A stretch of 64,000 nt of DNA from contig AP039692.1 in NCBI GenBank assembly GCA_051599415.1, positions 620,001 through 684,000 of the forward strand. Direction: 5' to 3'. Source of the stretch: Savitreella phatthalungensis (lineage: Eukaryota). The translations under genes were made by a program, and so were the position numbers. Below are positions 30,264-57,293 of this stretch, piece by piece. Under the pieces are notes generated by a model. That model had not been told where the DNA came from and searched no databases. It worked only from the letters and a program-made list of their open reading frames with translations. Position 1 is the first letter of the stretch. Each line of letters begins with the position of its first letter.

Positions 30264-30992
30264 ACTACTGGAGCCATTTCAAGCCATTTGTAGCGACCGG
30301 GGAATCAATAGCATCATTCGCATGGCCATTCTCTGCTCTCAGCTCCATCGTGTATGGCATCAGGTAGATTCTTCAACCATTGTACACATGTCTCCCGCAC
30401 ATCCACTGATGTTGCAGCTTGACATGTGGAGACATGCAAGGGACGCAGGGAGATTGTTGCCGCGCGTGTCCAAGTGTTTATGGATTCTGCTACTTCTCAA
30501 TTTCACGGCAGCACCCTGAAACCCGGCGCGTATTCGAGGAAATGGTTACGTCTCCTTGCTGGTTTCACGAGCCACATGCCTTGATCGTCTTTCCACATAG
30601 CTCCATCGTCACATTGATCGCAACGTGGTACGGCAGGCGAAGTCGGTGCTCATGTCACATAACTTATGATGCCCCTGTATGCTACTTGTGGAGCTGAAAA
30701 TTAAACTTCGTCTCACATAGTGTCCACATGCTGTCTCAGACCGAGCCATCTTTGATACTCCGTGCATTTGCCATTCACAGTGACTGACGTCAACGCCAAC
30801 GAGAGTGTCCAACGAGAGGCTCCACGCTCGAAAGGCTGATCATCGAGCTCAATGGGATCTATTCACTCCCTTGAAAGGGATATCTACTGAAAATTGGCGG
30901 AGGCGTACATAAGCAGATGTGAGAGGCGTCCGTATAAATCGATCTTTTGTGTAGTTCAGCTTCGATCGACGTCGCAGCTTATCATCTTAGAC

Positions 30993-33754: not shown

Positions 33755-35431
33755 TCACTGGTACGCCTCGCTCGATTTCCTATACGCCGCCAAAGCTCTT
33801 TGTTTTGACTCTTCCCAGTTCACGCATGGTTCGGGGTAGCCGAGCTTGGCAAATTCGTCTTTTGACAGCCGTTCGAACGGCATGTAGATTGCGGGCGTAG
33901 GCACATCCTTCAGCTCCGGAACCCACTTACGAATGTAGTCGCCGGTTGAGTCATTCCGTTCCGCCTGGGACACGGGGTGGAAGAGCGTGTAGGAAGGCTG
34001 CCAGGAGATCGTGTTGACGACGGGCGAGTGGTCAATCAGCATCACCGTAAAGTGCCAACAACCGCGTCGCCAATCAATCAGCTGATTTGCTCTCAGAAAG
34101 CTTGCCGTGTTCATCCTCACTCGATTGTGCATCCACGCCTCTGCCTTGAGTTGTCGCATCCCTGCATCTACCAGCGGATAGCCAGTTTTGCCATCCACCC
34201 ATTTTTGCCACTGATCCTCATCCTCCAGCCATTCGATATCAGCCATTCGCAAGGACTGAGGTAAATTCATGAGCATATGAGGCTGAATCGTGATGAGCTG
34301 TTGATAGAATTCGCGGAAGACGATCTCACGAATCCAGCCATTGATACCTGGGTTGCCCTTCGAACTCGCAAAATCAGTCGAGCCGTTGTTGTGTTCTTTG
34401 CACAAGGCGACACATTCACGAGGTGATATGGCGCCTGTGTTGAGGTATAACGACATTCGCGAGGTGGAATCGGATGATGGATCGGACCGTGTATCGGCAT
34501 ATTTGTCAACCATGTCGCTAAGAAATGCTTCCAGTCGCTTTCGCGCTGCTTTGTATCCAGCCGGCCACAGCTTTCGAATCTCCTTTGCATTCTCGTAGTC
34601 CGGCTCAGACGGTACTTTGGAGGAAAATAAGCCCGAGTCTTCAAGCTTGGCTGCTTGCTCGTCCGTGTTGCCACTGGGTGATGGTACTTGTTCCAGCTTC
34701 GCATGTTTCATCTCAGATATCCATTCCCGCCAGTACGGCGTGTATACTTTATGCAAGCCACCCGAGCCAGTATGTAACGTTCCAGGGTCGATGACGCACT
34801 GGTCGTGCAGAAGCTCGAAGTGCACGTCATCCAAATCCGTTGCCAGTGCAATATCTCTGCGCAATTCGTCCACCTCGTACTCGTAGTTCGCGTAGACATG
34901 AGAGATTTCGTGCTTGCGAATGAATGAGATTAAGTCAGGAACGACTGCTTTTCTCGTAGACGCCTCGTGGAAGTACAGTGGGATGTTTTCCTTTCGTAGT
35001 TCGGCCTGGAGATCTGCAACGCTCTTGAGTAAGAAGTCGCGCCGTGCTGGAGCACATCCATGCCATTCGAGATCTTTTGGCGAATGGACAAACAGTGTGA
35101 TCAGCGGCTTGCCAGAGGAATCGGCCTGTTCACTTGCCTTGTGGAGAGCGCGATTGTCCTTCAGCCTGAGGTCCTTGGAGCGGAACCAGTGCAAGATGTT
35201 ACCAACGCTTTTAGGCGATGATCGCTTATTGAGCAAGTCCTCGAGCTGATTGAACGGAGGATCCTCGTCAATTTCCTTCGCCCGCTCGATAGACGGACAC
35301 TTCTGCCATGGTTCAACAGACTGCCGAGCCTTTTTAGCCGGTCTCGAGGCCTCTTTGGCTGAAGCGCGCTTTCCCATTGTGTGGAAAAGTCGTTGTCGCC
35401 ATGTCGTCATCGATTTCAGTCGACCGAACAT
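33755..35431 (-). CDS. Class I CPD photolyase-like cryptochrome/photolyase family protein (divergent C-terminus)
   Basis: HWFRSKDLRLKDNRAL, TSRMS, REFY, GKTGYPLVDAGMRQL, WMHNRVRM and GDYIRKWVPEL. Start codon uncertain. Confidence 0.88.
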   Translation of the reverse strand: MFGRLKSMTTWRQRLFHTMGKRASAKEASRPAKKARQSVEPWQKCPSIERAKEIDEDPPFNQLEDLLNKRSSPKSVGNILHWFRSKDLRLKDNRALHKASEQADSSGKPLITLFVHSPKDLEWHGCAPARRDFLLKSVADLQAELRKENIPLYFHEASTRKAVVPDLISFIRKHEISHVYANYEYEVDELRRDIALATDLDDVHFELLHDQCVIDPGTLHTGSGGLHKVYTPYWREWISEMKHAKLEQVPSPSGNTDEQAAKLEDSGLFSSKVPSEPDYENAKEIRKLWPAGYKAARKRLEAFLSDMVDKYADTRSDPSSDSTSRMSLYLNTGAISPRECVALCKEHNNGSTDFASSKGNPGINGWIREIVFREFYQQLITIQPHMLMNLPQSLRMADIEWLEDEDQWQKWVDGKTGYPLVDAGMRQLKAEAWMHNRVRMNTASFLRANQLIDWRRGCWHFTVMLIDHSPVVNTISWQPSYTLFHPVSQAERNDSTGDYIRKWVPELKDVPTPAIYMPFERLSKDEFAKLGYPEPCVNWEESKQRALAAYRKSSEAYQ

Positions 35432-35567
35432 GGGAATCAAGGTTTCGAGTGAGCTACATTTATCGAGATCAATTGTGCATATTTTGTACAACAGCTGCTT
35501 AGAGACAAGGTCAATGTATTTTATGTACGGTGGTATGGCAGGACGCTAAAGCGCCGTTTGAATATGT

Positions 35568-37409
35568 TTACATGCCGCCAAAGATCGAGCCGATGATAGG
35601 CGGCATGCCAGTCTGATCGACGACTGGCGCAGAGGAGGTGGAAGCGGATGGAACGGCGCTGGCCAAATCAACTGTCGAAGTCGGCGCCACAACCGAGGCC
35701 GCGTCAGTAGACAGGCTGGTCGGAACAACGGACGAGACGACCAAAGTGGTCGAAGCAGCGTCGGTCGACAGGCTTGTTACAACGGCTGATGAGACAGCTG
35801 GTGCGGTCGGCACAGAGGAAACGATCACAGTGCTCGAGAGGGCATCTGTCGGTAGACTTGTTGCCACAGTGGGGGAGGTAGCCAAAGTGGTCGAAGGGAT
35901 AACACTTGTCGCTGCTACCACGCTCGACACAAGGTCCGTAGCCACGGATGCGACGCTTGAAACAGCGGTGGAGACCACTGCTGCGCTCGACGCAATATCG
36001 CTGGGCAGAGCGGCTGTGCTCGATGGTGCAATAGGCGCAAGGGTAGCGACACTGGACGAGAGGGCGCTTGCCACGGCTGCTGCACTTGACGCAACGTCGC
36101 TCGGTGCTGCTGCCACGGTCGAGACGACTGCGCTCGGAATCACCGAAGCGGTCGGTAGAGTGAGTGACGATGCGGAAGAGGAGCTGAACGAGGGTAGGGC
36201 CGGGATTGATAGGCTTGGCGGAGACAAGCTCGATGACGGAAGTGTTGGTGGTGCGGGAATGCTCAGCGAGCCTGATGGGCTAGGCAGGACCGGGATTGAA
36301 AGGCTTGGCGGAGACATGCTCGATGACGGGAGTTGTGGTGGTGCGGGAATGCTCAGCGAGCCTGATGGGCTAGGCAGGACGCTTGCTGGCACGCTTGGGG
36401 CAACAGAGATCACTGGGGCCGATGATGCACTGACCGGCACACTCGGGATCGCAGAGATGACCGGCGATGACGGCGCGCTTGCCGGCACACTGGGGAGAGC
36501 AGAAATGACCGGAGGTGATGGTGCGCTTGCTGGAGCACTCGGGATAGCAGAGATGACCGGTCGCGACGGCGCAATTGCTGGCACGCTCGAGATGGCAGAG
36601 ATTACAGGTGGCGATGGCTTGGGAATGGCCTTGGTAGTGAAGCGGCCTGGCACGATGCCGGGCGGCTTTGCCATGCTGGCGGCTGCAGCGCTGGCACGGG
36701 ACTTGATGGAGGACAAGCGCGAGGATGCCTGGCTGAAGCGGGACTTTGCCGAGGATGCTTGGGCGGATAGGGCTGCCTCGACGGACTTGACGCTTGCGAT
36801 GGCAGAAAAAGCGACTGGAACCATCGCAGCAGCGGAACCGGTCTTGATCGCTTGTACCTGAGCGTCGATTGAGCTCAATTGGTTGGAAACGACGCCGACT
36901 TGCAAGTTGACCAGGTTGGTCATGTCATTGATCCCGACAAGCTGGGACTGTTGAATGGATTTAGCGGCGTCGAGCGATGAGATCTGCGAGTTGATTGTGG
37001 AGAGCTCGACTGTGATTGTGACAAGCTCGACGCCCACTTGAGAAAGCGAACGTCCAAGAGAGACGGCCGATGATGCAATCGCTCTGCCCTGAGCAGTGAG
37101 GATGCTTGCAGCAGCAGCGGCGGCAGCCTGTGAACGTGCGGCCGCGGCCGCAGCAGCAGCTTGCGACCGTGCAGCGGCAGCGGCAGCAGCAGCTTGTGAT
37201 TTAGCAGCGGCAGCGGCGGCAGCAGCTTGTGATCGTGCAGCTGCAAGCCCGGAATCAACTGAATTAGGGATTGTTCTGCCAGCAGGCACTCCCGGAATGC
37301 CTCCCAGAGGCAGACCCGCTAGAGGGTTGCCTCCACCTGCATTTGGGATGAGGTGACCGAGATCGATGGCGACCACGGCGGGGACAAGGTAGAGGATGGA
37401 GAACTTCAT
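35568..37409 (-). CDS. Secreted Ser/Ala/Pro-rich mucin-like protein with coiled coil and internal repeats
   Basis: Signal peptide MKFSILYLVPAVVA, (A)nRSQ repeats, a heptad region, PVISAIPS repeats and an S/T-rich tail. Confidence 0.75.
   Translation of the reverse strand: MKFSILYLVPAVVAIDLGHLIPNAGGGNPLAGLPLGGIPGVPAGRTIPNSVDSGLAAARSQAAAAAAAAKSQAAAAAAAARSQAAAAAAAARSQAAAAAAASILTAQGRAIASSAVSLGRSLSQVGVELVTITVELSTINSQISSLDAAKSIQQSQLVGINDMTNLVNLQVGVVSNQLSSIDAQVQAIKTGSAAAMVPVAFSAIASVKSVEAALSAQASSAKSRFSQASSRLSSIKSRASAAAASMAKPPGIVPGRFTTKAIPKPSPPVISAISSVPAIAPSRPVISAIPSAPASAPSPPVISALPSVPASAPSSPVISAIPSVPVSASSAPVISVAPSVPASVLPSPSGSLSIPAPPQLPSSSMSPPSLSIPVLPSPSGSLSIPAPPTLPSSSLSPPSLSIPALPSFSSSSASSLTLPTASVIPSAVVSTVAAAPSDVASSAAAVASALSSSVATLAPIAPSSTAALPSDIASSAAVVSTAVSSVASVATDLVSSVVAATSVIPSTTLATSPTVATSLPTDALSSTVIVSSVPTAPAVSSAVVTSLSTDAASTTLVVSSVVPTSLSTDAASVVAPTSTVDLASAVPSASTSSAPVVDQTGMPPIIGSIFGGM
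36201..36380. repeat. 2 x 90-bp tandem duplication within the mucin-like CDS
   Basis: 36201-36290 and 36291-36380 differ at 5 of 90 positions; each copy encodes a 30-aa unit VLPSPSGSLSIPAPP... Confidence 0.95.
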
Positions 37410-39789
37410 CTTGGATCCTCAAGGATACTGATGGATGTTCTTCGGAGGTCATCAGCATCATCTTATATTCCTGTAGTGAGAGGGTCGGAGCATTGTGCGC
37501 AGGATCCGGGGCATCAGTCCGCTGGAACTGCAGGAGTTCAACCACAATTTTCGGCATCTTCTCGAGACAGTCATCATCAGCATCATTCTCAATGTTGCCA
37601 ATGGTTGTTGTCGCTGTCCCTGTCGTGATTGTTGCTCATACACAGTCAATCAAAATAAGCATTGATGCTGTGGCTTGTAAATCCGAGGGAGCCGGATAGA
37701 GGTTCACCTGTCAAACACTTCCCCGGAATCCTACATCCGTATGGTGTCAATTGAAGAAGAAGTGCAAATGTGAAATACAGCCAATCATTGAGCTAGGAGA
37801 TTTCCGCGAACGGAACGGTTTGGCGAATCCAGCCGACGGCACTTTCTGAATGCGGACTCCTTGACTCTCAGATTATGTCAAAAATTGTTAGAACGTTCGG
37901 AACCTGCGCAGGTGAGGGAAGCTCTACGGACGTTCGATTGGATGTACCCGAGCTTAAAGATTCCTGCCTCTTGAAGAGCATATCCAGAATCGACTTGCTC
38001 GGGCCTGTGAAATTGAAGTCGAACTGGTCATAATCTCTTGAGCTGTAGAGCATAAGTGAGTTGAAGTCTTCAGATGGCAAGTTTCACACCAGGAAGGCCA
38101 ACCCAACAAACTCGTCTGTTTCTTCCCTATCCAGCGAATTACTCATCCGCGGATTGCCTGAGGCAGGGAGACTATTGGTCAAGCTCATTCCAATCCCGGG
38201 TTACGTGCAGCGATATGCATGTAGCGGATGTTGGTGTCGACGCTTGCAGTTGTCAAAACTATTCTTGGTGCGAGGGCAGTGGCTAGTCCATAACCAGTTT
38301 CCAGCACCGGACGCCAGCGGGGGACGGATTGGTCTCACCCTTTGAGGAGAGGCCCAATCGAGGTATGTCATCGGGGACGTCCAAGCAACAACTCATGTCT
38401 TCAAGTGGCACTAACCACTGCGGATAGCTCCGTCTGGTTATTTCGACTGTCTTCTCTTTAGCACACTTCAAGCGCATCTTCGACGCGACGATGCGAAACA
38501 CAGTGAAGTTTGGCCCTGGCATAGTTGCGCTTCCTTTCATAACGATGTCGTGCATGATTTGCCGGATTGCTTGACAAATGTGCTTTCGATTAGGCAAGGG
38601 AGCGTCACGACAAGGTTTTATTCAAGACAGGAACAAGTGATCAACATACAAATTCATGGGCAATGCGATATCTCTGTGGTTCAGTCCGGCGCGCGTGCCA
38701 CGGCCTGTGATCAACGTCGTGGCAGTTTGAACCTCATCGAAAGCACAGAAGAGCCAGGGCATGCGACAAGAGATTGCTGCCGGCAGCTGTCGTGAAGTCA
38801 CTAGGTGGGAGACTACACGTGCACAAGCATAAGTGCTTCATGATCACGTGTATAGCTGAGCAGCACGATATCAAGTGCTCACACCGCTACAGATATCAAG
38901 ATGTACAATGCTGTCTTGACCGAATTCAGTTCCAGATTTCAAGCTCGATCGCGTGCGCTCTCTGCCTGAGGTAAATCCATTTCATATAAATTAAATCAGT
39001 TCTAAGCAGGTCAAAGAGAGCTCAATTCTATTTATAGTATACTGACTGATTGATTTATGGTAAAACCATCTTGGTTGTTGTTCCCTTGACCAAGGTATCA
39101 TCGCCCTAATCAGACCAGCGCATTTTCAAGACGGGAATTTCTACAATACAGATATACACACAGGTTTGGATACGGCAAGCTGGTTCGATCTTGAGGATTC
39201 CCTTAATTAGAAACAACATATATGTACACGTGTCCATAGTCCAAAGAATTTGATATCGTGCACACGGGTACTGAAAATTATAGAATGATCAGCCAAATAT
39301 CTAGCCGCGTATGTGCATAGGTAAATCAATTTACTACGTTATACCGATTAATGCTAAGGGCTAGCTGTGTGCATCTGTGGACGTGTTTTTGTCAGTTGTT
39401 TTGATGCTCAAAAAGTGCAGTCAATTAGACAGCGCGCGCATATACAATACCCAAAAGATTGTAGCTCAAAAGCGGGAGAGGGGCGCGCGCGTGACCCATA
39501 AAGCTTGAGCCGCGTGCCTGTATCCTTTTCTACTCGTTGCAAGCGCCCTTGAGGAATCCCCGGAGCAATCGCCTCGTCTGCTCAGACGCGCTACCACGGT
39601 CATCCGCTGGTACTCTCATCCCGTGTACATCACAGCATTACTCAATCATCGTTGCACACAAATCAGTACGGTTTCCTGAGGGTGCATTGAGCTCCTAAGA
39701 CAGTAAGACAGTCCTACGCCGAAGCTCGAGTCGCGATCGATACTTATCCACTCGCCAGCCTGATCAAGGATCTCTCACACCCAGAAAAG

Positions 39790-46249: not shown

Positions 46250-48046
46250 TCAGTGGCCGGAGATGATTGAATCGGCAATCTTTTCTGCAAGAGCGTAGAC
46301 AACCGACTGCGGGTGGCCAGGTGGGAGGACGGCAAAGGAGGATGCATCAACGACACGGAGCTTCGAAACGCCGTAGACACGGGCGGAAGAGTCGACGACC
46401 GCAGTCAGATCATCCGCCTTGCCCATCCGATTAGTACACGAGGCGTGGTAGACGGTGTGGACGTCCTTCCTGATTTGCGCCAGGATCTGCTCGTCCGTCG
46501 CCACCGATGGACCAGGATGATATTCTGTCGAATCAGCCAGGACAGCGGACATGGCCTTCGAGGCGAAAGCTTGGCGGAGGCGCTTGTAGGATGCGACGGC
46601 GACAGCCGCGTCAACAGGGTCCGTCAGCCATCTTGGATCAATGATGGGCAAGTCCGCGGTGGAGGCCGAAGCGAGCGTGACCGTTCCCCTGGAGGCAGGA
46701 GCTACAACAGCCGCAAGGATCGATGCGTACTGGTATCCATCATGCGGCTGGTCAAGCAGCAGATTGCCAAAGTCGCCGACGTATCCAGGAGCAGAGAGAT
46801 ATTCAATCTCGGGCCAACCACCCGGAGCAAGCTGGTCGAGCTTTGCCGCCGTTGCTGCATCAATCACTGACCTGTTGACCTTCTCCCATGCAAGTACGTC
46901 CAAAACCGGATTTGTGAAGACTCCGCGACCTTCACCATACCTCGCGATCTGCTCCGCGGCATAGACCGGGTCGTTCGCAAGCCGGGTCAGGGTATCGACC
47001 TTGACGCGGTACGTTGTCGACCAGAAGCAGTGGTCTTGCATACCCTGACCAACGCCGGGCCTATCAGCGATGACAGGGATGTTGAACTTGTTCAGGGTGT
47101 CCTTTGGCCCGACGCCTGACACCATGAGAAGCTGTGGGCTCTGGAAAGCGCCGGCCGAGACGATCACTTCTTTTCTGGCCGACAGGGTGAAGCCCTTGTC
47201 AGTCAAGACGCCGGTCGCTCTTTTCTGGCCGTCAAACAGAATCTTGCGAGCGGTGGTCAGCTCGTAAACGTTGAGGTTTGGGCGGTTTGACGCAGCATTG
47301 AGGAAACTCGTCTGAGAAGACTCCCGCGACTCAGAGGCAGGATTGATAGTCGATGAGCAGTATCCGACACCGCTGAGCTGCCCGTTGTTGAAGGACGGTG
47401 AAGTCGGAAGGCCAATTTCGTTCAGTGATGCTTCAATGTATGATGAAAAAGGGCTAGCATAGTTCGCATAACTGATCTGGAGAGGTCCACCACTAGTGTC
47501 GAAGTCTGCGCTGTTGAATCGCACGGATGCATTTGCGGCCCTCTTGCTGGTGTCCGGTTCGTGGAACTGGACAGATCTTCGGAAGTACTTATCAAAGTTG
47601 TCAAATCGATAAGAGTCGTCACCCGTCAGGTCAGCCCAGCGGTCCAGCGACGACCGTTCAGCCTTATGGTAGGCCATGAAGTTGAGAGCGCTCGAGCCTC
47701 CTAAGGTCTTCCAACGCGGGTAGCGGATACGCCGATCAGCCGCACCCTGCTGAGGTACGGTGACGAACGACCAGTCGACCAGGGGGTTCGTGTCACTTGG
47801 GTCGGATCCTGCGAATAGAACATCCCCGGCCGGCGTGGAAGCAATGAATGGATCAGTCAGCTCGTAGTAAGTGCCGGCCTCCACGACCGCTACACTTGTC
47901 TTCCCATCTGCGCTGAGCCTATTGGCAATGGCGAGGCCGCCAGTGCCCCCGCCTACCACAACATAATCATAAGCAGCATCGAGAGTCAGAGAAACGCCAG
48001 CCAATGGCACAGCCACGGCTGACGAGACAAGCAGTAACGATAGCAT
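46250..48046 (-). CDS. Secreted GMC oxidoreductase (AA3 family)
   Basis: Signal peptide, YDYVVVGGGTGG, TLGGSSALN, EVIVSAGAFQSPQLLMVSGVGP, catalytic YH and GHP, LRVVDAS. Confidence 0.92.
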   Translation of the reverse strand: MLSLLLVSSAVAVPLAGVSLTLDAAYDYVVVGGGTGGLAIANRLSADGKTSVAVVEAGTYYELTDPFIASTPAGDVLFAGSDPSDTNPLVDWSFVTVPQQGAADRRIRYPRWKTLGGSSALNFMAYHKAERSSLDRWADLTGDDSYRFDNFDKYFRRSVQFHEPDTSKRAANASVRFNSADFDTSGGPLQISYANYASPFSSYIEASLNEIGLPTSPSFNNGQLSGVGYCSSTINPASESRESSQTSFLNAASNRPNLNVYELTTARKILFDGQKRATGVLTDKGFTLSARKEVIVSAGAFQSPQLLMVSGVGPKDTLNKFNIPVIADRPGVGQGMQDHCFWSTTYRVKVDTLTRLANDPVYAAEQIARYGEGRGVFTNPVLDVLAWEKVNRSVIDAATAAKLDQLAPGGWPEIEYLSAPGYVGDFGNLLLDQPHDGYQYASILAAVVAPASRGTVTLASASTADLPIIDPRWLTDPVDAAVAVASYKRLRQAFASKAMSAVLADSTEYHPGPSVATDEQILAQIRKDVHTVYHASCTNRMGKADDLTAVVDSSARVYGVSKLRVVDASSFAVLPPGHPQSVVYALAEKIADSIISGH

Positions 48047-48563
48047 ATATCGACGTGCATGGCAGATTGGGTTCTCTCATCTTCTCATAGCAAGTCTGAA
48101 GGCAACAGAATTGCACTTCCCCGGCCTCGAATCCCACTAAACCGCTGAGAGGAGATCTGATCCATGCACTTCCCCAGAATGGTCAAGAAGTACTCATATG
48201 CAACAATTTCGCGATCGCTTCCGTGCCGCCCGAGTCAAGAATGTCCTTACCCAGAGACGCGACGCGACCAACCGTTCCTTGAGATTGAGACATTTCGACT
48301 GTGTCGATCGCGGAACGTCCGCTTGTGGGATTTGTGGAGAAGGCGGCTCCTAGACCAATCGGAATACTCAATTGTGAGTATATCCGAATGGCCAAATACA
48401 GGTTTGACAGGCTTCGGCTTGGAATGAATAAGGCGATCCGCATCAGCTAAGAACTACGGGGTTGGAGCATACCTTTGATTTAATGGAAGAGACTGCGGTT
48501 CGCTCTGCAGGAGCAAATAGGATAACCAATCAAGGGTCCCAGTCGGACCGGCCTGAAAACCTG

Positions 48564-51320
48564 TCAAATGTAGAAGGTGGAATTTGCGATGCGGCTGTGT
48601 ATCTTGCCGTTCCACTTCGGTTCTTCTTGCTGTCCGCGGACCTCGTAGAATTGGTCAACTTGATAGAGGCGAGCGCGTTCGCATAGCAAATCAGCGTAGT
48701 ACGCCGGCGGGCAGATTGAGACTGCCTTCGTCGCGCGAACGTATACGTGCGAGAGTTCGAAAACACCTTGTTGTAGATCGTTTGCGGAGAGGCCAATCTC
48801 GTCGTGCACAAGAATATAGCGGCCGGGGCGACTGGAACCCTGCAAGCCGGCCTGCGCCGTCAGGAAAAAATCATTTAGCCCGCTGTCCGTGACGCCCCGA
48901 TCCACAACGGTACCTGGCGCACAGTTGACGTTCTTTCCCTGGGCATCAGCAGCGCTCGTGGGATAGAAGCGAGTGTGGTGACGCTTAGAGACCACGATCA
49001 TAGCCATCTTAGGCCAATTAGCTTGAGCGCCGTAGAGGCGCGAGAATGCCTGGCGGAAACTCGGTATCTCTTGATTGACAACGATCCTGAGCTGACCCTC
49101 AGACACACCATCACGATAGACGATGACCCGTTTCGGTAACTTGCCTGAGTTTGCGCTTCTGAAGGCCGTCAGACGTTCGACAATCATGTCTGCAAGGTCC
49201 GTTACCATTTCCTTTCGGGACTCCTGGCATCTGATGCTCGCAGGCCATTGTCCGAGCAGCTTGCTTGTGTTTGCAACCACCCCAGCAACCGATGGTGCGC
49301 TCTCGGCACTACCAGGAGCGGGATGCGTCACATCGATCCCGACCAACATCGTTGACTCGTCGATATACTTGAGTGCATCGCGCGTCGTGTGATTGATCCC
49401 ACCACCCTTGGTATTGAACTTCATCGCGATATTCGCGAAGTATTGAGCCTGACCTTGAACTTTTTGCAGCTTTGCCGAAACGCAGCAGACTGTTTGGACG
49501 CCATGTACGACATCTCCGAGATACTTGATCCGCGAATACAGCCAGCGGTCAGCTTCACGCAAGACTACAAGACAAATCTCCACGCCTTTAGCAGCCATTG
49601 CAGCGATTTGCCGTTGGAGCACAGTGAAGTTCGCCTCTCGATTTGTTTGAGTCAACTGCTGTAGAGTAGTTTCGTGGCGATCGGGAAACTTATCGAACAA
49701 TACACCTGATGCTTTGAAGGCCGTCATCAGTGCGGTCACAGTCTCTCTAGGCGTGTCGAGTGACTTTCGTGGTCCGAAATTGATGTCCATCACCGCCCAG
49801 TGCTTGAAACGTGTGCCACGGAAGAAGTGCTTGCCAATGAGGTTCCAGCTTCCTTCCTTTGGAACCATCGTGGCACCACCGTAAGCGATAGTCGGAGCCT
49901 GCAGGATCCTGCCTTGCACGGCAATCATACGTTTGTCAATTTTGATGCCGAAGGTGGCCAATCTCTGCACGTCGTACATGTCTAGTCCTTCGCTCTGAAT
50001 AAAATGCGCGTTGAGATTCGGCGCGCGAGCTGCGGTGAGGATCATCTCCTTTGTTTGATTGGCGTTCAGAATACGCCTAACAGCCTGCCCACGCATCACT
50101 GTGCAAAGCTCGCTTGGGATGTAAATCGGTTTGTCTGGTCGACCAACATTGACGCAAGGAAGGTCGAGCTTGAGCTGAATGCCATGCTGCTTTGCGAAGT
50201 AGTCGTGGACGTTTGTTTTGACACCTTCCACTTCGAAGATTTGATCGCGTGGCGATTTGCCTAGCCCAATGATGGTCTTGACCTTTTTCACTGTAATGCG
50301 TGGGTCGACCGTGCCATCTGCGCGTTTGCCCTTCAAGTACTGCGTCTCGACTTTGAGCAAGCGAATTAAAGCCGGCAGGTCTTGCGGTCGCACCTCTCGC
50401 ATCAAGTCCACGAGAGGCTGCGGCTTGAAAAAGGCTGCATTACAGACGTTGATGTTAAGCAACAGCCTACTTGTGCCACATCTGACAGAGGCGTAGAAGC
50501 CACGCAGGGCACGTAAACCTCCAGAGAGATCGCCCTCTCCAGGAGGGGATTGGTCAGTGAAAAACTTGTTGTCCTGACCAAGGCGGTACACGTTGGATTG
50601 ACGGTTCGCCAGGGATCCTACGACAATGTTCAGAAGCTGTGTCATTTCATCTTTGACCGCGAGCAATTCGCTCGGAGACCTTTGCTTAAGTGCTTCCACC
50701 AATTGAGTTAGCGAAAAGCGACCCGTCTCTTGAATCTTGTAGCTGCCTTTCTCCGAGCTGATTACAGTGGACAAATCCGCTTCCCAAACGGCGATGTCTC
50801 CAGTGGTGACGAGGATGCCGGCGTAGTCACACGCAGTCATCACTTTGCTCAGACGAGGATCAGCCAAAATGTACTCGGCAAGTCTACGCCTCTTTGGACG
50901 ACTGAGGCCTTCTGGTGCGCTGATAGCATAACGATAAAGGTCTCCGCCTTCAGGCTTGAGAAGGAAGTAGTTCGCTAGGAGCGTGATAGGACGGCCGAGG
51001 GTACCGTAGCCAGATCGAGGGGGAAAACTGGCGGTCTTGGTCTTTGGTGCACTCACCCGTAGATTTTCCTCACCAGTCACAACTTTATCGACCGTTGATG
51101 TGCCGATGGCGACAGGACCAGGACGCATAGTGACAGCAAGGGACGACATGCCAGAGGTGACTTGACCGAGTGCAGGACCTCTTGTCTGGGAATTCCCACG
51201 TTCGCTACTCGAATGACCTCCGCGTCCGCCATAAGCACCGCGTCCGCTGCCGCGACCACCACGCTCCGCAGTCCCGCCACGACCGGCACCACGACCACGA
51301 TGCCCACCGCGCTGCGACAT
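48564..51320 (-). CDS. Argonaute protein (QDE-2-like), intronless
   Basis: RGG-rich N-terminus, ANYF, PAZ (YF..HGIQL..PCVNVG..YIPSELC) and PIWI motifs VGIDVTHP, KEMV, YRDGVSEGQ, KRHHTRF, PAYYADLLCER, terminal FYI. Confidence 0.95.
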   Translation of the reverse strand: MSQRGGHRGRGAGRGGTAERGGRGSGRGAYGGRGGHSSSERGNSQTRGPALGQVTSGMSSLAVTMRPGPVAIGTSTVDKVVTGEENLRVSAPKTKTASFPPRSGYGTLGRPITLLANYFLLKPEGGDLYRYAISAPEGLSRPKRRRLAEYILADPRLSKVMTACDYAGILVTTGDIAVWEADLSTVISSEKGSYKIQETGRFSLTQLVEALKQRSPSELLAVKDEMTQLLNIVVGSLANRQSNVYRLGQDNKFFTDQSPPGEGDLSGGLRALRGFYASVRCGTSRLLLNINVCNAAFFKPQPLVDLMREVRPQDLPALIRLLKVETQYLKGKRADGTVDPRITVKKVKTIIGLGKSPRDQIFEVEGVKTNVHDYFAKQHGIQLKLDLPCVNVGRPDKPIYIPSELCTVMRGQAVRRILNANQTKEMILTAARAPNLNAHFIQSEGLDMYDVQRLATFGIKIDKRMIAVQGRILQAPTIAYGGATMVPKEGSWNLIGKHFFRGTRFKHWAVMDINFGPRKSLDTPRETVTALMTAFKASGVLFDKFPDRHETTLQQLTQTNREANFTVLQRQIAAMAAKGVEICLVVLREADRWLYSRIKYLGDVVHGVQTVCCVSAKLQKVQGQAQYFANIAMKFNTKGGGINHTTRDALKYIDESTMLVGIDVTHPAPGSAESAPSVAGVVANTSKLLGQWPASIRCQESRKEMVTDLADMIVERLTAFRSANSGKLPKRVIVYRDGVSEGQLRIVVNQEIPSFRQAFSRLYGAQANWPKMAMIVVSKRHHTRFYPTSAADAQGKNVNCAPGTVVDRGVTDSGLNDFFLTAQAGLQGSSRPGRYILVHDEIGLSANDLQQGVFELSHVYVRATKAVSICPPAYYADLLCERARLYQVDQFYEVRGQQEEPKWNGKIHSRIANSTFYI

Positions 51321-52023
51321 GACGACTGAATACCAAAGATCTTTGAATATGTGTGTCTTTCTGTGTTCACAGGCGTTCCTGTGTCGTTTGTCTATGCTGA
51401 AACCCATTCTCACATAAACCTACTATCAATTGGGAACAGGTTTCACCCAACGTGTGGCGAGAATCAGTATAGCGAGCACTCCCTCAGTGAAGCCACGAAG
51501 AGTGATTGATATGGATTGGAATTAATAAAATGCTCTAGGCGGGATTGATTGACTGAAATCGATTGTATTGATGATCATACACATCATCAGCATATTTGTC
51601 TGGCTTTACAAGATATTGCGGTAAAATGAACGTATACATTCGTAGCCATGCAGCACGCGGCTATAGATACATGAGGAGACGTTATTGCGAATCTCAAACG
51701 ATCTCAAGCAAGATTTAGTCATACAAGAAATCTCGTAAGCACTGAAGGTCTGTCTCTGACTCTGCCACTCTGATTCCGCAGACTCGTAAAGCTTATCGGT
51801 CATCGTTGATACAGCCAGTGATCTATGGTCAGCAGCGATCTGAGACATTCCAACCCTAGCATGTAGTGGTGCAAAAACAGTCGTCATGCGCATGTGCGTG
51901 GGCATGCAGCGAAGGAGACAGTAAATAAGTGATCAATTCTAAGAGATTCATATTTTTGAGAATCGGCAAGAGCGTGATGATCGGCCTCTAGTCTAGGCAG
52001 ATTCGCCCGACCGGTGAAAGGTC

Positions 52024-53370
52024 TCACGCGAGGTAGCCATTCACAGTGCTGCGGCCAGCACGTTCAAGCTTTGTAAATGCTCTGCTCATAACAACGTCTT
52101 GTACCGAGTCGAGGAAGACGAACGAGCCAATCTCGCCCGAGACCACTGGCAGCCGTAGCCGACCACCTCGCGATTTCGTGATATCGACCTTACTTGATTC
52201 GATCATGTCAAGCGTGAAGCTGTCGTGCCAAATCGGCAGGCCAAGTGACTTGACGACCCGCATGACGCGTTCGACGTCTTCTGACGATATCAGAGCGAGC
52301 TCTTCAGATATATACATGCAGAGCATCATGTCGATATTCACAGCCTCTCCGTGTAGCAGCGGGTATTTCGATTCGAGGGAGGCCATCTCGAGCATCGGAC
52401 TGAAGGTATGACCAAAATCAACGATTCGGTAGAGGGTCGTCTCCATAAAGTTTGGCTCGAGTTCTTCAAGCATACCCTGGATCGAGCGACGCAAAACGCG
52501 CTTTGTGCATCGTGAGCCGTCCTCTTCGAGGTGTTCGAAGAGTGCGAGATCCTTGATGAGAGCCATCTTCAGAATCTCACCCATACCATTTGCAACATGT
52601 CTAGGCGGCAGCGTAGATAAGAAGGTGTCCGAGTCGATATAGACTGCGAGTGGTGCGCAGTATGTCCCAATCTTATTTTTCTCGCAGCAAAAGTTGACTG
52701 CAGTCTTCACGCCCACAGCAGCATCGACGTTGGCAAGCAAGGTTGTAGGAATCTTGATGATAGGAGTGTTCCGACGCCACAAGTTAGCTGCAAGGGCGGA
52801 GACATCGAGGACGACTCCACCGCCGAATGACAGAATGGGATCACGACGGCGGTCGATGCCAAATTTCTTTAGCGCCTCACATACGCCCATGACTTGCTCA
52901 GCGCATTTGCCTTCCTCGCTGCTTTCCAGAACGTGAAAAAGAGCATCGACCTTGTGGTAAGCAAAGTAGGACCGCATCCTGGCACCGTAGATCTTGTCAA
53001 CATTGACATCTACAATGATGAAGCGCCGGAGATTGCCTTCTCCAGGACTTTCTTCACCAAGATGCGGCTTCAATGCCGGAGGATAGACATCTGGATCGAT
53101 GGATGAAAGAAGTGAATAATTGCGCGGATTCAAAATGTCATCAGTCTCCTCGATGTGATACTTCATCTCGACCACTGCAGAGGCTGTGAATCGACCGGTG
53201 TCTAGGCCAGAGGTACCTCCAATCCGCAGACCATTGAGACCCACATGGTTGATCTTGTTCAAGGGGCCGTGTAGAATCTGACCAGTCGGGCCATCGATGT
53301 CAGAGTCGATACCAGAGTCGGTCGACAGAGACCGCAGAGAAGCCCTACTGGAGTTGACGGTGCTCGACAT
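52024..53370 (-). CDS. Sedoheptulose 7-phosphate cyclase, EEVS (2-epi-5-epi-valiolone synthase)-type
   Basis: DHQS-fold motifs GGGVVLD, PTTLLANVDAAVGVK, KNKIGTY, GEILKMAL, MLEELEPNFME, RIVDFGHTFSP and LLHGEAVNIDM. Confidence 0.85.
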   Translation of the reverse strand: MSSTVNSSRASLRSLSTDSGIDSDIDGPTGQILHGPLNKINHVGLNGLRIGGTSGLDTGRFTASAVVEMKYHIEETDDILNPRNYSLLSSIDPDVYPPALKPHLGEESPGEGNLRRFIIVDVNVDKIYGARMRSYFAYHKVDALFHVLESSEEGKCAEQVMGVCEALKKFGIDRRRDPILSFGGGVVLDVSALAANLWRRNTPIIKIPTTLLANVDAAVGVKTAVNFCCEKNKIGTYCAPLAVYIDSDTFLSTLPPRHVANGMGEILKMALIKDLALFEHLEEDGSRCTKRVLRRSIQGMLEELEPNFMETTLYRIVDFGHTFSPMLEMASLESKYPLLHGEAVNIDMMLCMYISEELALISSEDVERVMRVVKSLGLPIWHDSFTLDMIESSKVDITKSRGGRLRLPVVSGEIGSFVFLDSVQDVVMSRAFTKLERAGRSTVNGYLA

Positions 53371-54600: not shown

Positions 54601-55804
54601 TCAAGAGACGCTTTGCGGCAAGCTAGCCAGAAATGCACGGATGGTTCTGATCGTTTCGGTCGGACGTTCTTGCTGGCACCAGTGGCCCGCGCCATCGATC
54701 AGATGTGTACCACGCCACAGATCGTGTTGTGCCACCATAGTCTCCATCGAAGCCATGCTACCGGGACTTTGGTAATTGCCCCAATCGGCAGCTCCGGAAA
54801 TGAAAGTCATAGGTACCTTGATTTTCATTCCCACCATCCATGCCATAGACGCTGTGTCTGCTCCCGAAGTCCTGGCCAAATACTGGTTCAAGCCGCCTTG
54901 GAACCCCTTGTCCTTGAAATGCTCGAGATAGATCTCAATTTCGTCGTCGTCCATCCAAGCACCCATGTCTTTCAACATCACATCGTAGGATGGTGTATTC
55001 GCTGCGACCGCCTCCGGCATGGTGCTTTGTTGGGGCATGACATAGTACTCGGGTAGAGCTGCCATTGCTGTTGCTGACCATCGGCTCGACAGGACATGCG
55101 GCGTGTTCTGTGGACAGTGAGCAGACTTGAACCAGTAGTAGCCGCGATAGAAATGGCGGAGATCGATTGGGCGTGCGTCTAGTAGCTCTCGAGCTGTCGT
55201 GGTCTCGCTGAAATACCACTGGTAGTGCTTTCGCGGCGGGATGAGCGCAGCAAAGTTCGAAAGGGCATCTTTCTTCGCGGCATTCTCCACTTCATTCAGT
55301 GGATCTGTGGCGCCAGTAAAGGGATGAGACATGACGACAAGCGATTCAAATATGTCTGGTCGTAGTTGCGCAAGCATGCCGGCAATATTTCCCCCCATAT
55401 CATGCCCAATTACACATCGAACCTTAGATTTACGCGCCTCTTGCAGCAGAATCCTTGTCAAGCTGAAGAATTCGGACATGGTATCCTGTGAAGTATAGCC
55501 AAGCGCCCCGTATTCTGCGTCAGGAGCCGAAATAGAGTACGTCGCACCGTAACCCTTCATGTCTGGCGCAATGACCCAGTAGTGCTTGGCAAGATCAGGC
55601 ATGATCTTACGCCATGAAAAGGCGATCTCCGGAAATCCTGTACCAGGTTAGTCATCGTCGATCTTCGCTCATTCCACGGATATCCGTACCGTGAATCAAA
55701 AGAATCAACGGATTTGCCTTGTCACCTGCTTCCAGGATACGAAAGGACGTGTCCCCAGCGCGGATGCGACGCAGGCTGATACAAGCATCGAGGAGGCGTT
55801 CCAT
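54601..55804 (-). CDS. Epoxide hydrolase (alpha/beta hydrolase); intron 55689-55638
   Basis: Spliced LLIHG|FPEIAFSWRK; GHDMGG nucleophile; RKHYQWY, GLNQY and GAGHWCQQE. 52-nt intron GTACGG..CTAAC..CAG. Confidence 0.88.
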
Positions 55805-55928: not shown

Positions 55929-57293
55929 ATGTGGGCGTTGACCTCTATGGTCGCCCTTGGCGGCATCATCTGGTCGGCTGTTCGAGCGCTGTTGAAGTTT
56001 GTGTTGACGGCGGCCATCGGATGGCTTCTAGCCCGCAAAGGGCTTCTGGACTCCCAGGGCACACGAACGCTCTCGCAATGCGTCATCAATGTCTTCATTC
56101 CCGCACTCATGTTCTCAAAGGTTGTTGAAGGAGTGGATCAGGACAAGCTCGTTCAAGTTGGAATCCTAGCGCTCACCTCCGTCCTGTATATGCTGATGGG
56201 CCTACTCTTTGGGTTAATCGTGCGGTTGTGCACGCGTGTGCCACGTTGCTGGCAAAATGGTGTGCTGGCGACTGGCGCTTTTTCCAATTGGGGAGACCTG
56301 CCTCTTGTACTAATCGGAACCATCGCGGCTGTACCACCGTTTGACGGGACCTCCGATCAGGCACTTGGTCTCGCCTATGTCTCCATTTTCATCTTCTTGC
56401 AAAGCACCGTCGTCTTCGTGTTCGGCGGCACGTGGCTTGTATCGTCAGACTTTGATCGTTCCCAAGCAGATCTCGACAAGCCCGTTCGAGGTCTTGTAGA
56501 TCGCGTAAGGGATTTTACCTCTAGCAAGGATGAGACCAGCGTGCGGGTGGGCGAGTCACTGGGTCGAGTGCGCAGTAACAGCATGAGCAGTGTACAGCTC
56601 GAGCCGGTGGTTTCCGGCGTCATCAATCCTGCGGATCAATTCTCCTCGCTACAACGGGCAGATGTTTTGCCTAGCAGACCTCCTCTATCTTCTGACCGCT
56701 CGCTGAGCCTTCGACTTCGGGCCGCGATCAGACCGGCTGTGGAACGCCTTATCGCACCTCCATCAGCTGCCATCATTGTCGGCTTCGTTGTCGCGATTGT
56801 CCCCCAAATCAAGGCTTTGTTTGTGAGTGTGCCTTCGCAGCATCTTCCGAACGGCCCAGATGGAAAACCGCCGCTCGATTTCTTGCTCGACATCGCAAAC
56901 TTCATCGGTGGCGCTTCAGTGCCGACTTCTTTGCTAATCCTCGGCTATTCACTATCACGTCTCTCTCTCAGGCATCCACCCGCGATCACCAGCGCAGCTC
57001 TCATGTGTCTGCTCAAGATGTTTGTGGGACCTGTGGTCGCTGTGGCATGGATGCAATTCGTCGCTTTACACACAGGCTGGATTGCTGAATCAGACAGGAT
57101 ACTCAGGCTGTCTTTGGTGCTGCCAGCGGCGTGCCCGACGGCAACGACAATGCTTTACCTCACCCAGGTATTCTCGACTGACGAAAGAGAGCTTGAACTA
57201 CAGTGCGTCTCTTTCTTCCTCGTGCTGCAATACGCGGTCATCGGGCTCACGATGACCATCACGGTATCATACACGCTGCACCTTATAGCTTAA
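55929..57293 (+). CDS. Auxin efflux carrier family (PILS/ECM3-like) membrane transporter
   Basis: PALMFSKV, FSNWGDLP, LAYVSIF, GGASVPTSLLILG and PTAT; two blocks of TM helices around a hydrophilic loop. Confidence 0.85.
   Translation: MWALTSMVALGGIIWSAVRALLKFVLTAAIGWLLARKGLLDSQGTRTLSQCVINVFIPALMFSKVVEGVDQDKLVQVGILALTSVLYMLMGLLFGLIVRLCTRVPRCWQNGVLATGAFSNWGDLPLVLIGTIAAVPPFDGTSDQALGLAYVSIFIFLQSTVVFVFGGTWLVSSDFDRSQADLDKPVRGLVDRVRDFTSSKDETSVRVGESLGRVRSNSMSSVQLEPVVSGVINPADQFSSLQRADVLPSRPPLSSDRSLSLRLRAAIRPAVERLIAPPSAAIIVGFVVAIVPQIKALFVSVPSQHLPNGPDGKPPLDFLLDIANFIGGASVPTSLLILGYSLSRLSLRHPPAITSAALMCLLKMFVGPVVAVAWMQFVALHTGWIAESDRILRLSLVLPAACPTATTMLYLTQVFSTDERELELQCVSFFLVLQYAVIGLTMTITVSYTLHLIA

Follow-up and report, generated by a model that had tools for sequence, protein, structure and literature searches.

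An EEVS-type sedoheptulose-7-phosphate cyclase gene in the fungus Savitreella phatthalungensis

The cyclase gene and its product

The window, by which we mean the whole 64-kb stretch of DNA analysed, carries on its minus strand a stand-alone, stop-bounded open reading frame for an EEVS-type cyclase of 448 amino acids. The features on which the argument draws are listed here, with residue numbers of the cyclase.

52024..53370, minus strand: ORF of the EEVS-type sedoheptulose-7-phosphate cyclase, complete and intronless from ATG to stop, 448 aa
53263..53370, minus strand: N-terminal residues 1-36, Ser-rich and predicted to be disordered (pLDDT <50), outside the catalytic fold
52816..52824, minus strand: GGG, residues 183-185, glycine-rich nucleotide-binding turn, invariant in a 40-sequence alignment
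52705..52707, minus strand: Lys222 in GVKTAVN, the catalytic-site lysine of DHQS-like cyclases, Lys in 80 of 80 sequences from 10 groups
52576..52578, minus strand: Glu265, probable first metal ligand by homology with DHQS and ValA, conserved in all tabulated groups
52441..52473, minus strand: MLEELEPNFME, residues 300-310; Leu304 corresponds to ValA Leu267, and where Leu-Trp is usual the clade has its own Phe308 and Met309
52396..52428, minus strand: RIVDFGHTFSP, residues 315-325; Asp318 corresponds to ValA Asp281, and His321 is the second metal ligand
52351..52353, minus strand: His340 in LLHGEAV, third metal ligand (column table)
52171..52173, minus strand: Ser400, aligned to ValA His360 and DDGS Thr347 and differing from the canonical EEVS residue
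46250-48076, minus strand: GMC oxidoreductase, 608 aa (Pfam), 4 kb from the cyclase with an Argonaute gene between them
54601-55804, minus strand: epoxide-hydrolase-like alpha/beta hydrolase, 1.2 kb upstream of the cyclase and on the same strand

In a phmmer search against the PDB, residues 91-432 of the cyclase align with ValA from end to end with zero frame breaks, which implies that the gene, one uninterrupted ORF, is intact and, as had been proposed, intronless. Pfam places a DHQ_synthase domain at residues 147-260 (9.7e-30) and a DHQS_C domain at residues 262-388 (3.2e-24). The AlphaFold2 model has a pLDDT of 87.8, and Foldseek returns ValA (4P53) as its top match with a target-normalised TM-score of 0.93, compared with 0.83 for the DDGS structure 5TPR; identity to ValA over the structural alignment is 38%. 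Taken together, Pfam, the model and the alignments find the two-domain DHQS-like fold, the NAD-binding glycine turn and the Glu/His/His metal site all present. Unlike ValA, the cyclase has an N-terminal extension of 90 residues, the first 36 of them disordered, and it lacks some 11 residues that ValA has near query residue 291. Alignments with eukaryotic relatives begin at about residue 33-39 and the one with ValA at residue 91.

The metal and catalytic residues that were checked are all in place: Lys222, Asn232, Glu265, His321 and His340 are conserved in the column table, the metal ligands and the catalytic Lys and Asn being those of ValA, and the cyclase agrees with the 40-sequence alignment at each of its 50 invariant columns. 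We take Lys222 to be catalytic, as in DHQS, and the glycine turn at 183-185 presumably binds NAD+, as is known for the family.

Assignment to the EEVS class

The best sequence match of the cyclase in the PDB is 4P53 (ValA; 4.1e-75, 256.7 bits), as against 1e-47 and 166.2 bits for the DDGS 5TPR, at most 124 bits for DHQS and 79-88 bits for AROM chains (phmmer). According to passages in PMC10666671, citing Osborn 2017, Leu267 and Asp281 of EEVS and the corresponding Glu254 and Ala268 of DDGS are discriminators confirmed by mutagenesis, and His360 of EEVS against Thr347 of DDGS is a third documented difference, not among the sites so confirmed. The cyclase has the EEVS residue at both confirmed sites (Leu304, Asp318) and Ser400 in place of His360; this last pairing comes from pairwise alignments in which, with Asp281 as calibration, the PDB chain index runs 6 above the native numbering. 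Read against DDGS, the three markers Glu254, Ala268 and Thr347 (Anabaena numbering) are Leu, Asp and Ser, and the pattern MLELE..PNLHE..IA.GHTWSP does not occur, whereas the Nostoc DDGS and one further protein (P0222) carry E, A and T at these sites. DDGS/MysA (Anabaena 5TPR) shares with the cyclase the superfamily, the substrate, 33% identity and a small hydroxyl residue at position 400 (Ser in the cyclase, Thr in DDGS), but it differs at both confirmed sites and falls into a separate clade; forcing the fungal clade together with four rows of the DDGS clade makes the tree 41.7 log-likelihood units worse, with p-AU 0.0043 in the approximately unbiased (AU) test. A DDGS identity was rejected on these grounds.

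We give next to no weight to the idea that the protein is a divergent dehydroquinate synthase of the shikimate pathway. Its two Pfam domains and the database name '3-dehydroquinate synthase' borne by some of its relatives would suit that idea, but the aroB equivalog model, whose cut-off is 305 bits, scores only 190.8, where DHQS has the motif R..LN.GHT.GH the cyclase has R.VD.GHT.SP (Asp318 for Asn, Pro325 for His), and DHQS sequences form the outgroup of the tree on a branch with support 100/100 and a length of 1.76; a DHQS identity was rejected accordingly. The original prediction, of an EEVS-type enzyme that is neither DDGS nor the DHQS domain of pentafunctional AROM, agrees with the phmmer scores, the motif table, the trees and the AU test, and a stand-alone ORF of this length with such low scores to AROM chains argues against the AROM domain in its own right. 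We are thus highly confident that the cyclase belongs to the EEVS clade.

Within that clade its active site is unusual. The 14-residue active-site fingerprint of Kean et al. 2014 is referred to in a passage of PMC4426668. The motifs MLEELEPNFME and RIVDFGHTFSP, from which the EEVS assignment had been made, are present far beyond chance, but Ser400 for His360 and PNFME for PNLWE depart from EEVS, so that the match to the EEVS pattern is incomplete. In the residue-400 column, 11 Taphrina-like and Protomyces sequences have Ser (7), Thr (3) or Ala (1), and the green algae of the sister clade have Ala (8) or Gln (3) and no His; His stands in 32 of 32 named bacterial and in 8 of 8 vertebrate sequences. 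To judge from the alignment, His360 is lost across the whole fungal-algal clade. More widely, the Taphrina-like clade differs in 14 of the 107 columns that are at least 90% conserved in bacterial and vertebrate EEVS, among them 308 (Leu to Phe) and 309 (Trp to Met) on the helix that bears Leu304.

Phylogeny and origin of the gene

The careful tree (IQ-TREE, 52 rows, 368 columns, supports given as ultrafast bootstrap/SH-aLRT) was rooted on three plasmid aroB proteins; none of its rows is itself a characterised protein, ValA entering through the PDB searches only and the vertebrates as orthologues named 'EEVS-like'. The cyclase groups with Protomyces, Saitoella and three chytrid genera, and these fungi form a clade of 10 rows supported at 100/99. 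Green-algal EEVS-like proteins are the sister group, fungi and algae together making 19 rows (100/99), and the vertebrate EEVS group joins them to give 29 rows at 94/95, below the starred level. The mutual order of the bacterial EEVS, DDGS and eukaryotic clades is without resolution in this tree, as is that of Saitoella, the chytrids and the Taphrina-like group. A quick tree of 88 rows gave the same branching order as the 52-row tree. The phylogeny that the original prediction proposed as a check thus places the cyclase outside DDGS and DHQS, in trees that hold no labelled 2-epi-valiolone synthase and so cannot tell EEV from EV.

Nine relatives (P0002-P0010) are 63-82% identical to the cyclase and Protomyces is 61% identical, which implies that function has been maintained. 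Identity falls to 44-50% for green algae and 38-42% for vertebrates, and bacterial proteins reach at most about 46% among the matches listed. The named fungi among the 120 best matches listed are only Protomyces, Saitoella and the three chytrid genera (6 proteins); none of these matches comes from Pezizomycotina, Saccharomycotina or Basidiomycota, and Taphrina deformans is absent from them, though its proteome is in the database. The nearest named relatives among the matches listed are Taphrinomycotina, which, with a Zn2Cys6 and Fungal_trans regulator encoded in the window, bears out the placing of this cyclase in a fungus; with Protomyces and Saitoella as those relatives, the fungus itself would be Taphrinomycotina-like. 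No study on fungal members of this EEVS clade was found in the literature; the abstract of Osborn et al. from 2017 reportedly mentions fungi. The algal EEVS-like enzymes are stated to be unassayed in a passage of PMC7826186.

Horizontal acquisition, which had been raised as a possibility, did not gain ground. When 27 window ORFs are ranked by how near their codon usage comes to the pooled usage, the cyclase is sixth; its GC3 of 0.585 lies within the range of the window ORFs (0.501-0.671); usage so typical of the window gives no support to recent horizontal transfer. Lack of introns is the rule nearby, most neighbouring genes also being single ORFs (Argonaute, 947 aa; GMC oxidase, 608 aa; photolyase, 596 aa). 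Recent import from bacteria was rejected on codon usage, GC3 and the position of the fungal clade outside the bacteria, and we regard it as very improbable. There is more to be said for an ancient event, with a green alga and an early fungus, or else chytrids and Taphrinomycotina, as the two parties, yet transfer as a whole still strikes us as fairly unlikely: the very patchy distribution among named fungi in the 120 best matches listed, a sister group of green algae (many of them lichen photobionts) and the lack of resolution among Saitoella, chytrids and the Taphrina-like group would all suit it, but the fungal clade is monophyletic and stands outside both the algal and the bacterial clades, the gene has native composition and its want of introns is shared with its neighbours, and bacterial proteins come no closer than the identity given above. 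The gene seems to have resided for long in a few fungal lineages and not to have arrived recently. It would then be native to this fungus and part of an old fungal line that chytrids share and that has the green-algal enzymes as its sister group, which implies patchy retention and not recent acquisition.

Genomic neighbourhood

Gadusol-type genes have MT-Ox beside EEVS and DDGS-type genes have O-methyltransferase and ATP-grasp neighbours; neither linkage occurs within the window. Among 205 stop-to-stop ORFs of at least 90 aa (14 + 115 + 75 + the EEVS ORF), Pfam finds no small-molecule methyltransferase, Gfo/Idh/MocA or ATP-grasp domain, and the sole methyltransferase-type match is a fragment of a C-5 cytosine DNA methylase at 1-828. 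In tblastn searches of the window a bacterial Gfo/Idh/MocA fragment reached a best E-value of 0.086 and an O-methyltransferase one of 0.51. The window accordingly holds no MT-Ox, O-methyltransferase or ATP-grasp gene, as had been noted before, the statement on MT-Ox being based on Pfam domains and on Gfo/Idh/MocA and O-methyltransferase queries. No linked tailoring enzyme lies in the 11 kb to the window end or in the 52 kb on the other side, and the 64 kb contain no cyclitol kinase and no cluster of the validamycin type (kinase, aminotransferase and similar genes).

The hydrolase upstream of the cyclase has HGxP and GHDMGG motifs, its best PDB matches are epoxide hydrolases (4e-22), and a divergent spacer of about 125 bp separates it from a gene for a Mem_trans membrane transporter. 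One could imagine a local cluster in which one or more of the hydrolase, the transporter and the GMC oxidoreductase modify an epoxy- or keto-cyclitol derived from the cyclase and carry it out of the cell. The hydrolase's closeness on the same strand, its shared spacer with the transporter and the GMC gene within 4 kb lend this some appeal, but it seems to us a distant prospect. None of 119 listed non-self relatives of the hydrolase lies on a contig size-matched to those of close EEVS relatives, even though four of those contigs are 13.8-38.9 kb long; this check is an indirect one, of contig-size matching between hydrolase and EEVS relatives only. Relatives above 50% identity among the matches listed number two for the hydrolase and ten for the cyclase (P0002-P0011), the hydrolase family is frequent among Leotiomycetes, Dothideomycetes and bacteria missing from the listed EEVS matches, and the Argonaute gene intervenes before the GMC oxidase. 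The two genes that had been put forward as tentative partners, GMC oxidase and epoxide hydrolase, are thus there, but the distribution of the hydrolase family and the intervening Argonaute gene provide no evidence of partnership.

A search with the Argonaute neighbour gave 26 matches, dominated by plant AGO1 through a Gly/Arg-rich N-terminus and none of them fungal, and tRNA and Rfam scans of the window found nothing. Among 18 longer relatives of the cyclase, fusions occur to a ROK kinase, an AMP-binding domain, a nucleotidyl transferase, an aldo-keto reductase, a Nudix domain (Myrmecia) and an O-methyltransferase (P0146); the 18 scanned include no fusion to MT-Ox, and no fused relative belongs to the fungal clade.

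Proposed function and product

EEVS-type C7-cyclitol synthases have been studied in bacteria, in vertebrates and, by inference, in algae, and fungi are known for the DDGS/mycosporine route. In fish and algae this family supplies the ring from which the sunscreen gadusol is built. A fungal cluster of DDGS, O-methyltransferase and ATP-grasp genes is described for Phaffia in a passage of PMC10057719. DDGS genes adjoin O-methyltransferase and ATP-grasp genes, for instance in the mys cluster on the plasmid of Nostoc sp. HK-01 (L001), and the present cyclase does not. Its relations lie with two eukaryotic groups. The vertebrate EEVS (zebrafish LOC100003999 family; PMC4426668) shares with it the eukaryotic super-clade and the character of a stand-alone eukaryotic gene, but the fungal cyclase has no linked MT-Ox in the window and has lost His360; according to parts of PMC4426668 and PMC7826186, the vertebrate family makes EEV, adjacent EEVS/MT-Ox pairs occur in vertebrates, Aureococcus and Coccomyxa, and algal EEVS relatives adjoin MT-Ox in species that make gadusol-core compounds. 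The green-algal sister proteins (Chromochloris Cz11g05100, Klebsormidium, Coccomyxa; PMC7826186) share with the fungal cyclase the loss of His360, a Lys at 206 and an Ala at 224, but they retain PNLWE/NLYE where the fungal cyclase clade has PNFME, and in three algae the EEVS-like gene is reported in that source to be clustered with MT-Ox, ATP-grasp and O-methyltransferase genes, none of which is in the fungal window.

The whole is in our analysis best explained by a native, functional sedoheptulose-7-phosphate cyclase that probably makes 2-epi-5-epi-valiolone, and we consider this product, taken by itself, a reasonably likely prediction. We place the enzyme in the eukaryotic EEVS lineage, as a cyclase of sedoheptulose 7-phosphate that would depend on NAD+ and a metal. 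If it works as ValA and zebrafish EEVS do, it would transiently oxidise the sugar phosphate by means of its bound NAD+; as suggested by the family, loss of phosphate and a renewed reduction would follow, and an intramolecular aldol condensation would then form the ring, yielding the C7-cyclitol 2-epi-5-epi-valiolone. Among the conceivable fates of the cyclitol, conversion by unlinked enzymes into a UV-absorbing or antioxidant compound of the gadusol type would be the likeliest, gadusol itself being a tentative choice of end product.

The same substrate might instead be cyclised to something else (2-epi-valiolone, an enone like desmethyl-4-deoxygadusol or a new stereoisomer) as a result of active-site remodelling, His360 having become Ser and PNLWE PNFME. 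This we hold to be unlikely, though there is substance in it: of the three documented discriminating sites, one holds Ser400, which is similar to the Thr of DDGS, two of the 14 differing columns lie next to Leu304, the stem of the Taphrina-like subclade is long (0.72 changes per column), and no linked MT-Ox is present in the window to consume EEV. Against it, both sites confirmed by mutagenesis are of the EEVS type, grouping with DDGS is rejected by the AU test, and the sister green algae also lack the His, some of these His-less algae pairing the gene with MT-Ox and making gadusol-core compounds (PMC7826186), from which we argue that His360 may be dispensable for EEV formation. Bolder still, the fungal-algal branch could be a distinct C7-cyclitol synthase whose product is a new carbasugar and not a gadusol precursor, for example a glucose-mimicking, plant-active cyclitol of a leaf-dwelling plant pathogen; this reading, which builds on the lost His360, the substrate-facing helix rebuilt from PNLWE to PNFME in the Taphrina/Protomyces-like lineage and the missing MT-Ox linkage, is a long shot. 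A cyclase forming 2-epi-5-epi-valiolone remains our preferred reading.

What we have at present is a sound annotation and no new mechanism. If a functional EEVS is conserved in Taphrinomycotina and chytrids, these fungi may have the 'animal/algal' route to gadusol-type sunscreens, or a carbasugar of another kind. The eukaryotic clade appears to be wider, and to reach further back, than the alga-to-vertebrate transfer proposed at first, and thus touches the question of where the vertebrate gadusol genes came from. The fungal clade is also a natural test of the weight that His360 carries in the choice of product.

The cyclase gene and its family

The cyclase finding is real and its assignment to the EEVS family is right. 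The gene and the two motifs on which the assignment first rested, located by ORF calling and translation, are:

52024..53370, minus strand: cyclase ORF, 448 codons from ATG to stop in a single frame
52441..52473, minus strand: MLEELEPNFME, cyclase residues 300-310
52396..52428, minus strand: RIVDFGHTFSP, cyclase residues 315-325

Because the ORF is uninterrupted and residues 91 to 432 align with the bacterial EEVS ValA without a frame break in a search of PDB sequences, the gene is intact and has no intron, as the original prediction had said; both motifs quoted there were also recovered. The protein carries both Pfam domains of the dehydroquinate-synthase superfamily (9.7e-30 and 3.2e-24). 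In a motif table of 275 sequences the query stretch, MLEELEPNFMETTLYRIVDFGHTFSP, was compared with the bacterial and vertebrate EEVS-type motif MLEEL.PNLWE....R.VD[FY]GH.[FI]SP, with the dehydroquinate synthase (DHQS) motif K..VV..D..E...R..LN.GHT.GH and with a Nostoc DDGS row, and the motif rule proposed earlier for telling EEVS from DDGS is upheld by the table.

The best PDB sequence match is ValA (4P53; 4.1e-75, 256.7 bits), followed by Anabaena DDGS/MysA (5TPR; 1.2e-47, 166.2 bits); dehydroquinate synthases in the PDB do not exceed 124 bits, and pentafunctional AROM proteins score 79-88 bits with their DHQS domains. The NCBI aroB equivalog model scores 190.8 bits, below its cut-off of 305. 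An AlphaFold2 model built from a 40-sequence alignment has a mean pLDDT of 87.8, with residues 1-36 alone disordered. Compared with known structures, this model also fits ValA best (TM 0.93, target-normalised), with DDGS second (0.83). Match order, structure, motifs and the trees described below all bear out the EEVS-type assignment.

Phylogenetic position

Relatives were collected by a word-indexed search, in which 392 of the 8000 scored candidates reached E <=1e-10 (the best 120 listed), and by an exhaustive search of representatives, which gave 971 proteins at E <=1e-30 (the best 150 listed); further rows were drawn from named plasmid records. The latter comprise a Nostoc DDGS whose mys cluster is canonical, with an O-methyltransferase, a 464-aa ORF at the MysC place and a D-Ala-D-Ala-ligase-like gene as neighbours; four sedoheptulose-7-phosphate cyclases of actinobacterial, rhizobial or Bacillus origin, of which three adjoin ROK kinases; and four aroB genes adjoining shikimate-pathway genes. 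A quick maximum-likelihood tree (88 rows, 364 columns) and a careful one (52 rows, 368 columns), for which 36 rows had been dropped, most of them long-branch or representative-search sequences and the remainder an aroB and a few named rows that were redundant, give an identical branching picture.

The query, its close relatives and Protomyces form a tight group (support 100/100), which joins Saitoella and the chytrids Fimicolochytrium, Thoreauomyces and Rhizophlyctis in a fungal clade (100/99). The sister of this clade is a set of green-algal proteins from Klebsormidium, Chromochloris, Coccomyxa, Trebouxia and others (100/99), and vertebrate EEVS-like proteins with further relatives join next (94/95); these EEVS-like proteins are the vertebrate rows of the trees, which contain neither ValA nor zebrafish EEVS. 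The DDGS clade and the bacterial cyclases branch lower, as a polytomy. Clustering with DDGS or DHQS, named beforehand as the outcome that would speak against an EEVS, was looked for in the trees, and for DDGS also by an AU test, and was not found. When the fungal clade was forced to unite with the four DDGS-clade rows, the best tree was 41.7 log-likelihood units worse (p-AU 0.0043), and that grouping was rejected.

Active-site residues and the predicted product

ValA and Anabaena MysA are described as differing at His360/Thr347, Asp281/Ala268 and Leu267/Glu254, of which the last two were confirmed by mutagenesis (PMC10666671, a 2023 review citing Osborn et al. 2017). With the PDB chain index taken as native numbering plus 6, calibrated on Asp281 in the ValA alignment, the query has Leu304, Asp318 and Ser400 at the Leu267, Asp281 and His360 sites. 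By alignment, Leu304 and Asp318 are EEVS-type at both mutagenesis-validated sites, and Ser400 (codon at 52171..52173, minus strand) is not.

Residues at the ValA His360 position
Taphrina-like group (the query and its closest relatives) and Protomyces, 11 sequences: 7 Ser, 3 Thr, 1 Ala
Saitoella, 1 sequence: Ala
Chytrids, 5 sequences: 3 Gly, 2 Cys
Green algae, 11 sequences: 8 Ala, 3 Gln
Named bacterial cyclases, 32 sequences: 32 His
Vertebrates, 8 sequences: 8 His
DDGS, 2 sequences: 2 Thr

The departure at position 400 is a property of the whole fungal and green-algal clade (proteins P0001-P0038 of the comparison set). The metal ligands Glu265, His321 and His340, together with Lys222 and Asn232, are kept in all tabulated groups. 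Of 107 columns with at least 90% conservation across the bacterial and vertebrate sequences, the Taphrina-like group departs from 14, in addition to its change at position 400; the substitutions Leu308Phe and Trp309Met, which account for two of the 14, lie on the Leu304-bearing helix, and PNLWE has become PNFME or PNFEE in the Taphrina-like subclade.

We read the cyclase, from its sequence, as a native and predicted functional sedoheptulose-7-phosphate cyclase of the fungal branch of the eukaryotic EEVS lineage, whose predicted product is most probably 2-epi-5-epi-valiolone (abbreviated EEV). The tree holds no labelled 2-epi-valiolone synthase row and so does not separate EEV from 2-epi-valiolone. 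Only two features of the cyclase seem unexpected, namely that the fungal-algal clade as a whole has lost the canonical His360 and that the PNFME helix has been rebuilt in the cyclase's own lineage, and both keep alive the idea that the enzyme makes a different product. The algal EEVS-like gene is clustered with the methyltransferase-oxidoreductase MT-Ox in three species and gadusol-core compounds are known from Klebsormidium, the algal enzymes themselves being untested according to the authors (PMC7826186). This algal clade, the sister of the fungal one, is His-less all the same, and we infer that His at ValA position 360 may not be required for EEV formation. EEV, if it is the product, could be carried to gadusol by an unlinked MT-Ox or could have another fate.

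Origin and distribution in fungi

The original prediction hinted at horizontal acquisition. Ranked among 27 window ORFs by closeness to their pooled codon usage, the cyclase comes sixth, its GC3 of 0.585 lies within the window range (0.501-0.671), and the neighbours are mostly single long ORFs too, so that missing introns are no sign of foreign origin. As, in addition, bacterial proteins among the matches listed are at most ~46% identical and the fungal clade is nested neither in bacteria nor in algae in the 52-row tree, a recent transfer is unsupported.

The distribution in fungi is strikingly patchy. The only named fungi among the best 120 of 392 matches are Protomyces, Saitoella, Fimicolochytrium, Thoreauomyces and Rhizophlyctis (two proteins). 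Taphrina deformans (PYCC 5710), whose proteins are in the database and whose epoxide hydrolase was matched, has no entry among these 120, and even such close relatives may lack the gene or an annotation of it. As the tree does not settle in which order Saitoella, the chytrids and the Taphrina-like group branched, either numerous losses or an ancient transfer between eukaryotes could account for this. A full-text literature search returned, within the collection searched, no report of an EEVS-type gene or function in Taphrinomycotina, chytrids or other fungi. Osborn et al. 2017 reportedly mention in their abstract that EEVS or DDGS genes occur in fungi, among other organisms, and the paper may already list these genes.

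Partner genes and genomic neighbourhood

The fungal mycosporine route is a DDGS-OMT-ATP-grasp cluster, as described in Phaffia (PMC10057719), and the vertebrate gadusol pathway consists of EEVS plus MT-Ox, the only adjacent pairs named there outside vertebrates being those of Aureococcus and Coccomyxa (Osborn et al. 2015, PMC4426668). Every stop-to-stop ORF in the window with 90 aa or more, 205 in total, was scanned against Pfam; no Gfo/Idh/MocA or ATP-grasp domain turned up, and there was only one methyltransferase-type domain:

1..828, plus strand: C-5 cytosine DNA methyltransferase fragment, ORF running off the window start (Pfam 7.3e-36)

Six-frame tblastn of the window, which alone covers ORFs below 90 aa, gave no match better than E 0.086 with Nostoc MysB, the MysC-position ORF, the MysD-like ligase, a Bacillus Gfo/Idh/MocA fragment (not an MT-Ox), a Streptomyces alcohol dehydrogenase or a ROK kinase; the control, Nostoc DDGS, finds the cyclase at 3.4e-54. 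The earlier statement that mycosporine and gadusol partners are lacking is thus correct within the 64-kb window. Among relatives, EEVS-type cyclase domains are fused to an O-methyltransferase (P0146, in a group sister to vertebrates), a Nudix domain (P0037, from the alga Myrmecia) or an AMP-binding enzyme (P0123), and ROK kinase fusions occur in many bacterial relatives.

The nearest genes are:

46250..48076, minus strand: GMC oxidoreductase, farther from the cyclase
48564..51419, minus strand: Argonaute, single 947-aa ORF with a Gly/Arg-rich N-terminus, downstream of the cyclase
54601..55804, minus strand: epoxide-hydrolase-like alpha/beta hydrolase, upstream of the cyclase on the same strand
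55688..55804, minus strand: hydrolase first exon, ending in LLIHG
55929..57293, plus strand: Mem_trans-family membrane protein gene, divergent from the hydrolase

The hydrolase has an intron of ~50 nt (signals GTACGG...ACTAAC), after which the second exon resumes with FPEIAFSW and completes the HGxP motif; its nucleophile motif is GHDMGG and its best PDB matches are epoxide hydrolases (4e-22). Its start lies only ~125 bp from the divergent start of the Mem_trans gene, which suggests a shared bidirectional promoter. A homologue search gave 1311 proteins with E <=1e-20; among the best 120, the top non-self matches are 61% and 58% identical and the others at most 45%, among them a 'putative epoxide hydrolase' from Taphrina deformans (42%), and the matches listed are spread over Leotiomycetes, Dothideomycetes and alphaproteobacteria. 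In an indirect and weak comparison of linkage, none of the 119 listed non-self matches equals any close cyclase relative in longest-contig size (2806, 38904, 4908, 4941, 21483, 18922, 13782, 1705, 7880, 565986 and 308388). Conserved linkage of the hydrolase, tentatively put forward as a partner, is therefore unsupported, and the neighbour genes proposed as cyclase partners are not supported in that role.

RNAi machinery seems to be retained in Savitreella phatthalungensis, judging from the Argonaute ORF; in a homologue search with this Gly/Arg-rich query, plant AGO1 proteins crowded the matches and none was fungal. Farther out the Pfam scan found Maf, WD40, SPRY-CTLH, YjeF_N, polyprenyl synthase, WDR75 and MFS transporter genes and, within the window, a Zn2Cys6 plus Fungal_trans regulator gene, as well as:

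30891..31592, plus strand: cutinase-domain ORF
33758..35545, minus strand: DNA photolyase (DNA_photolyase plus FAD_binding_7 domains), ~17 kb from the cyclase
7001..8650, plus strand: 550-aa ORF, no Pfam match at E <=1e-4
8874..10013, plus strand: 380-aa ORF, no Pfam match at E <=1e-4
10014..11075, minus strand: 354-aa ORF, no Pfam match at E <=1e-4
35571..37418, minus strand: 616-aa ORF, no Pfam match at E <=1e-4

The regulator gene marks the source as fungal, and the relatives of the cyclase make it look Taphrinomycotina-like. The photolyase would be a curious neighbour if the cyclase serves UV protection, and the cutinase-domain ORF is in keeping with a plant-surface lifestyle. The 616-aa ORF lies in the window's highest GC-skew stretch (0.175 at 36001-38000).
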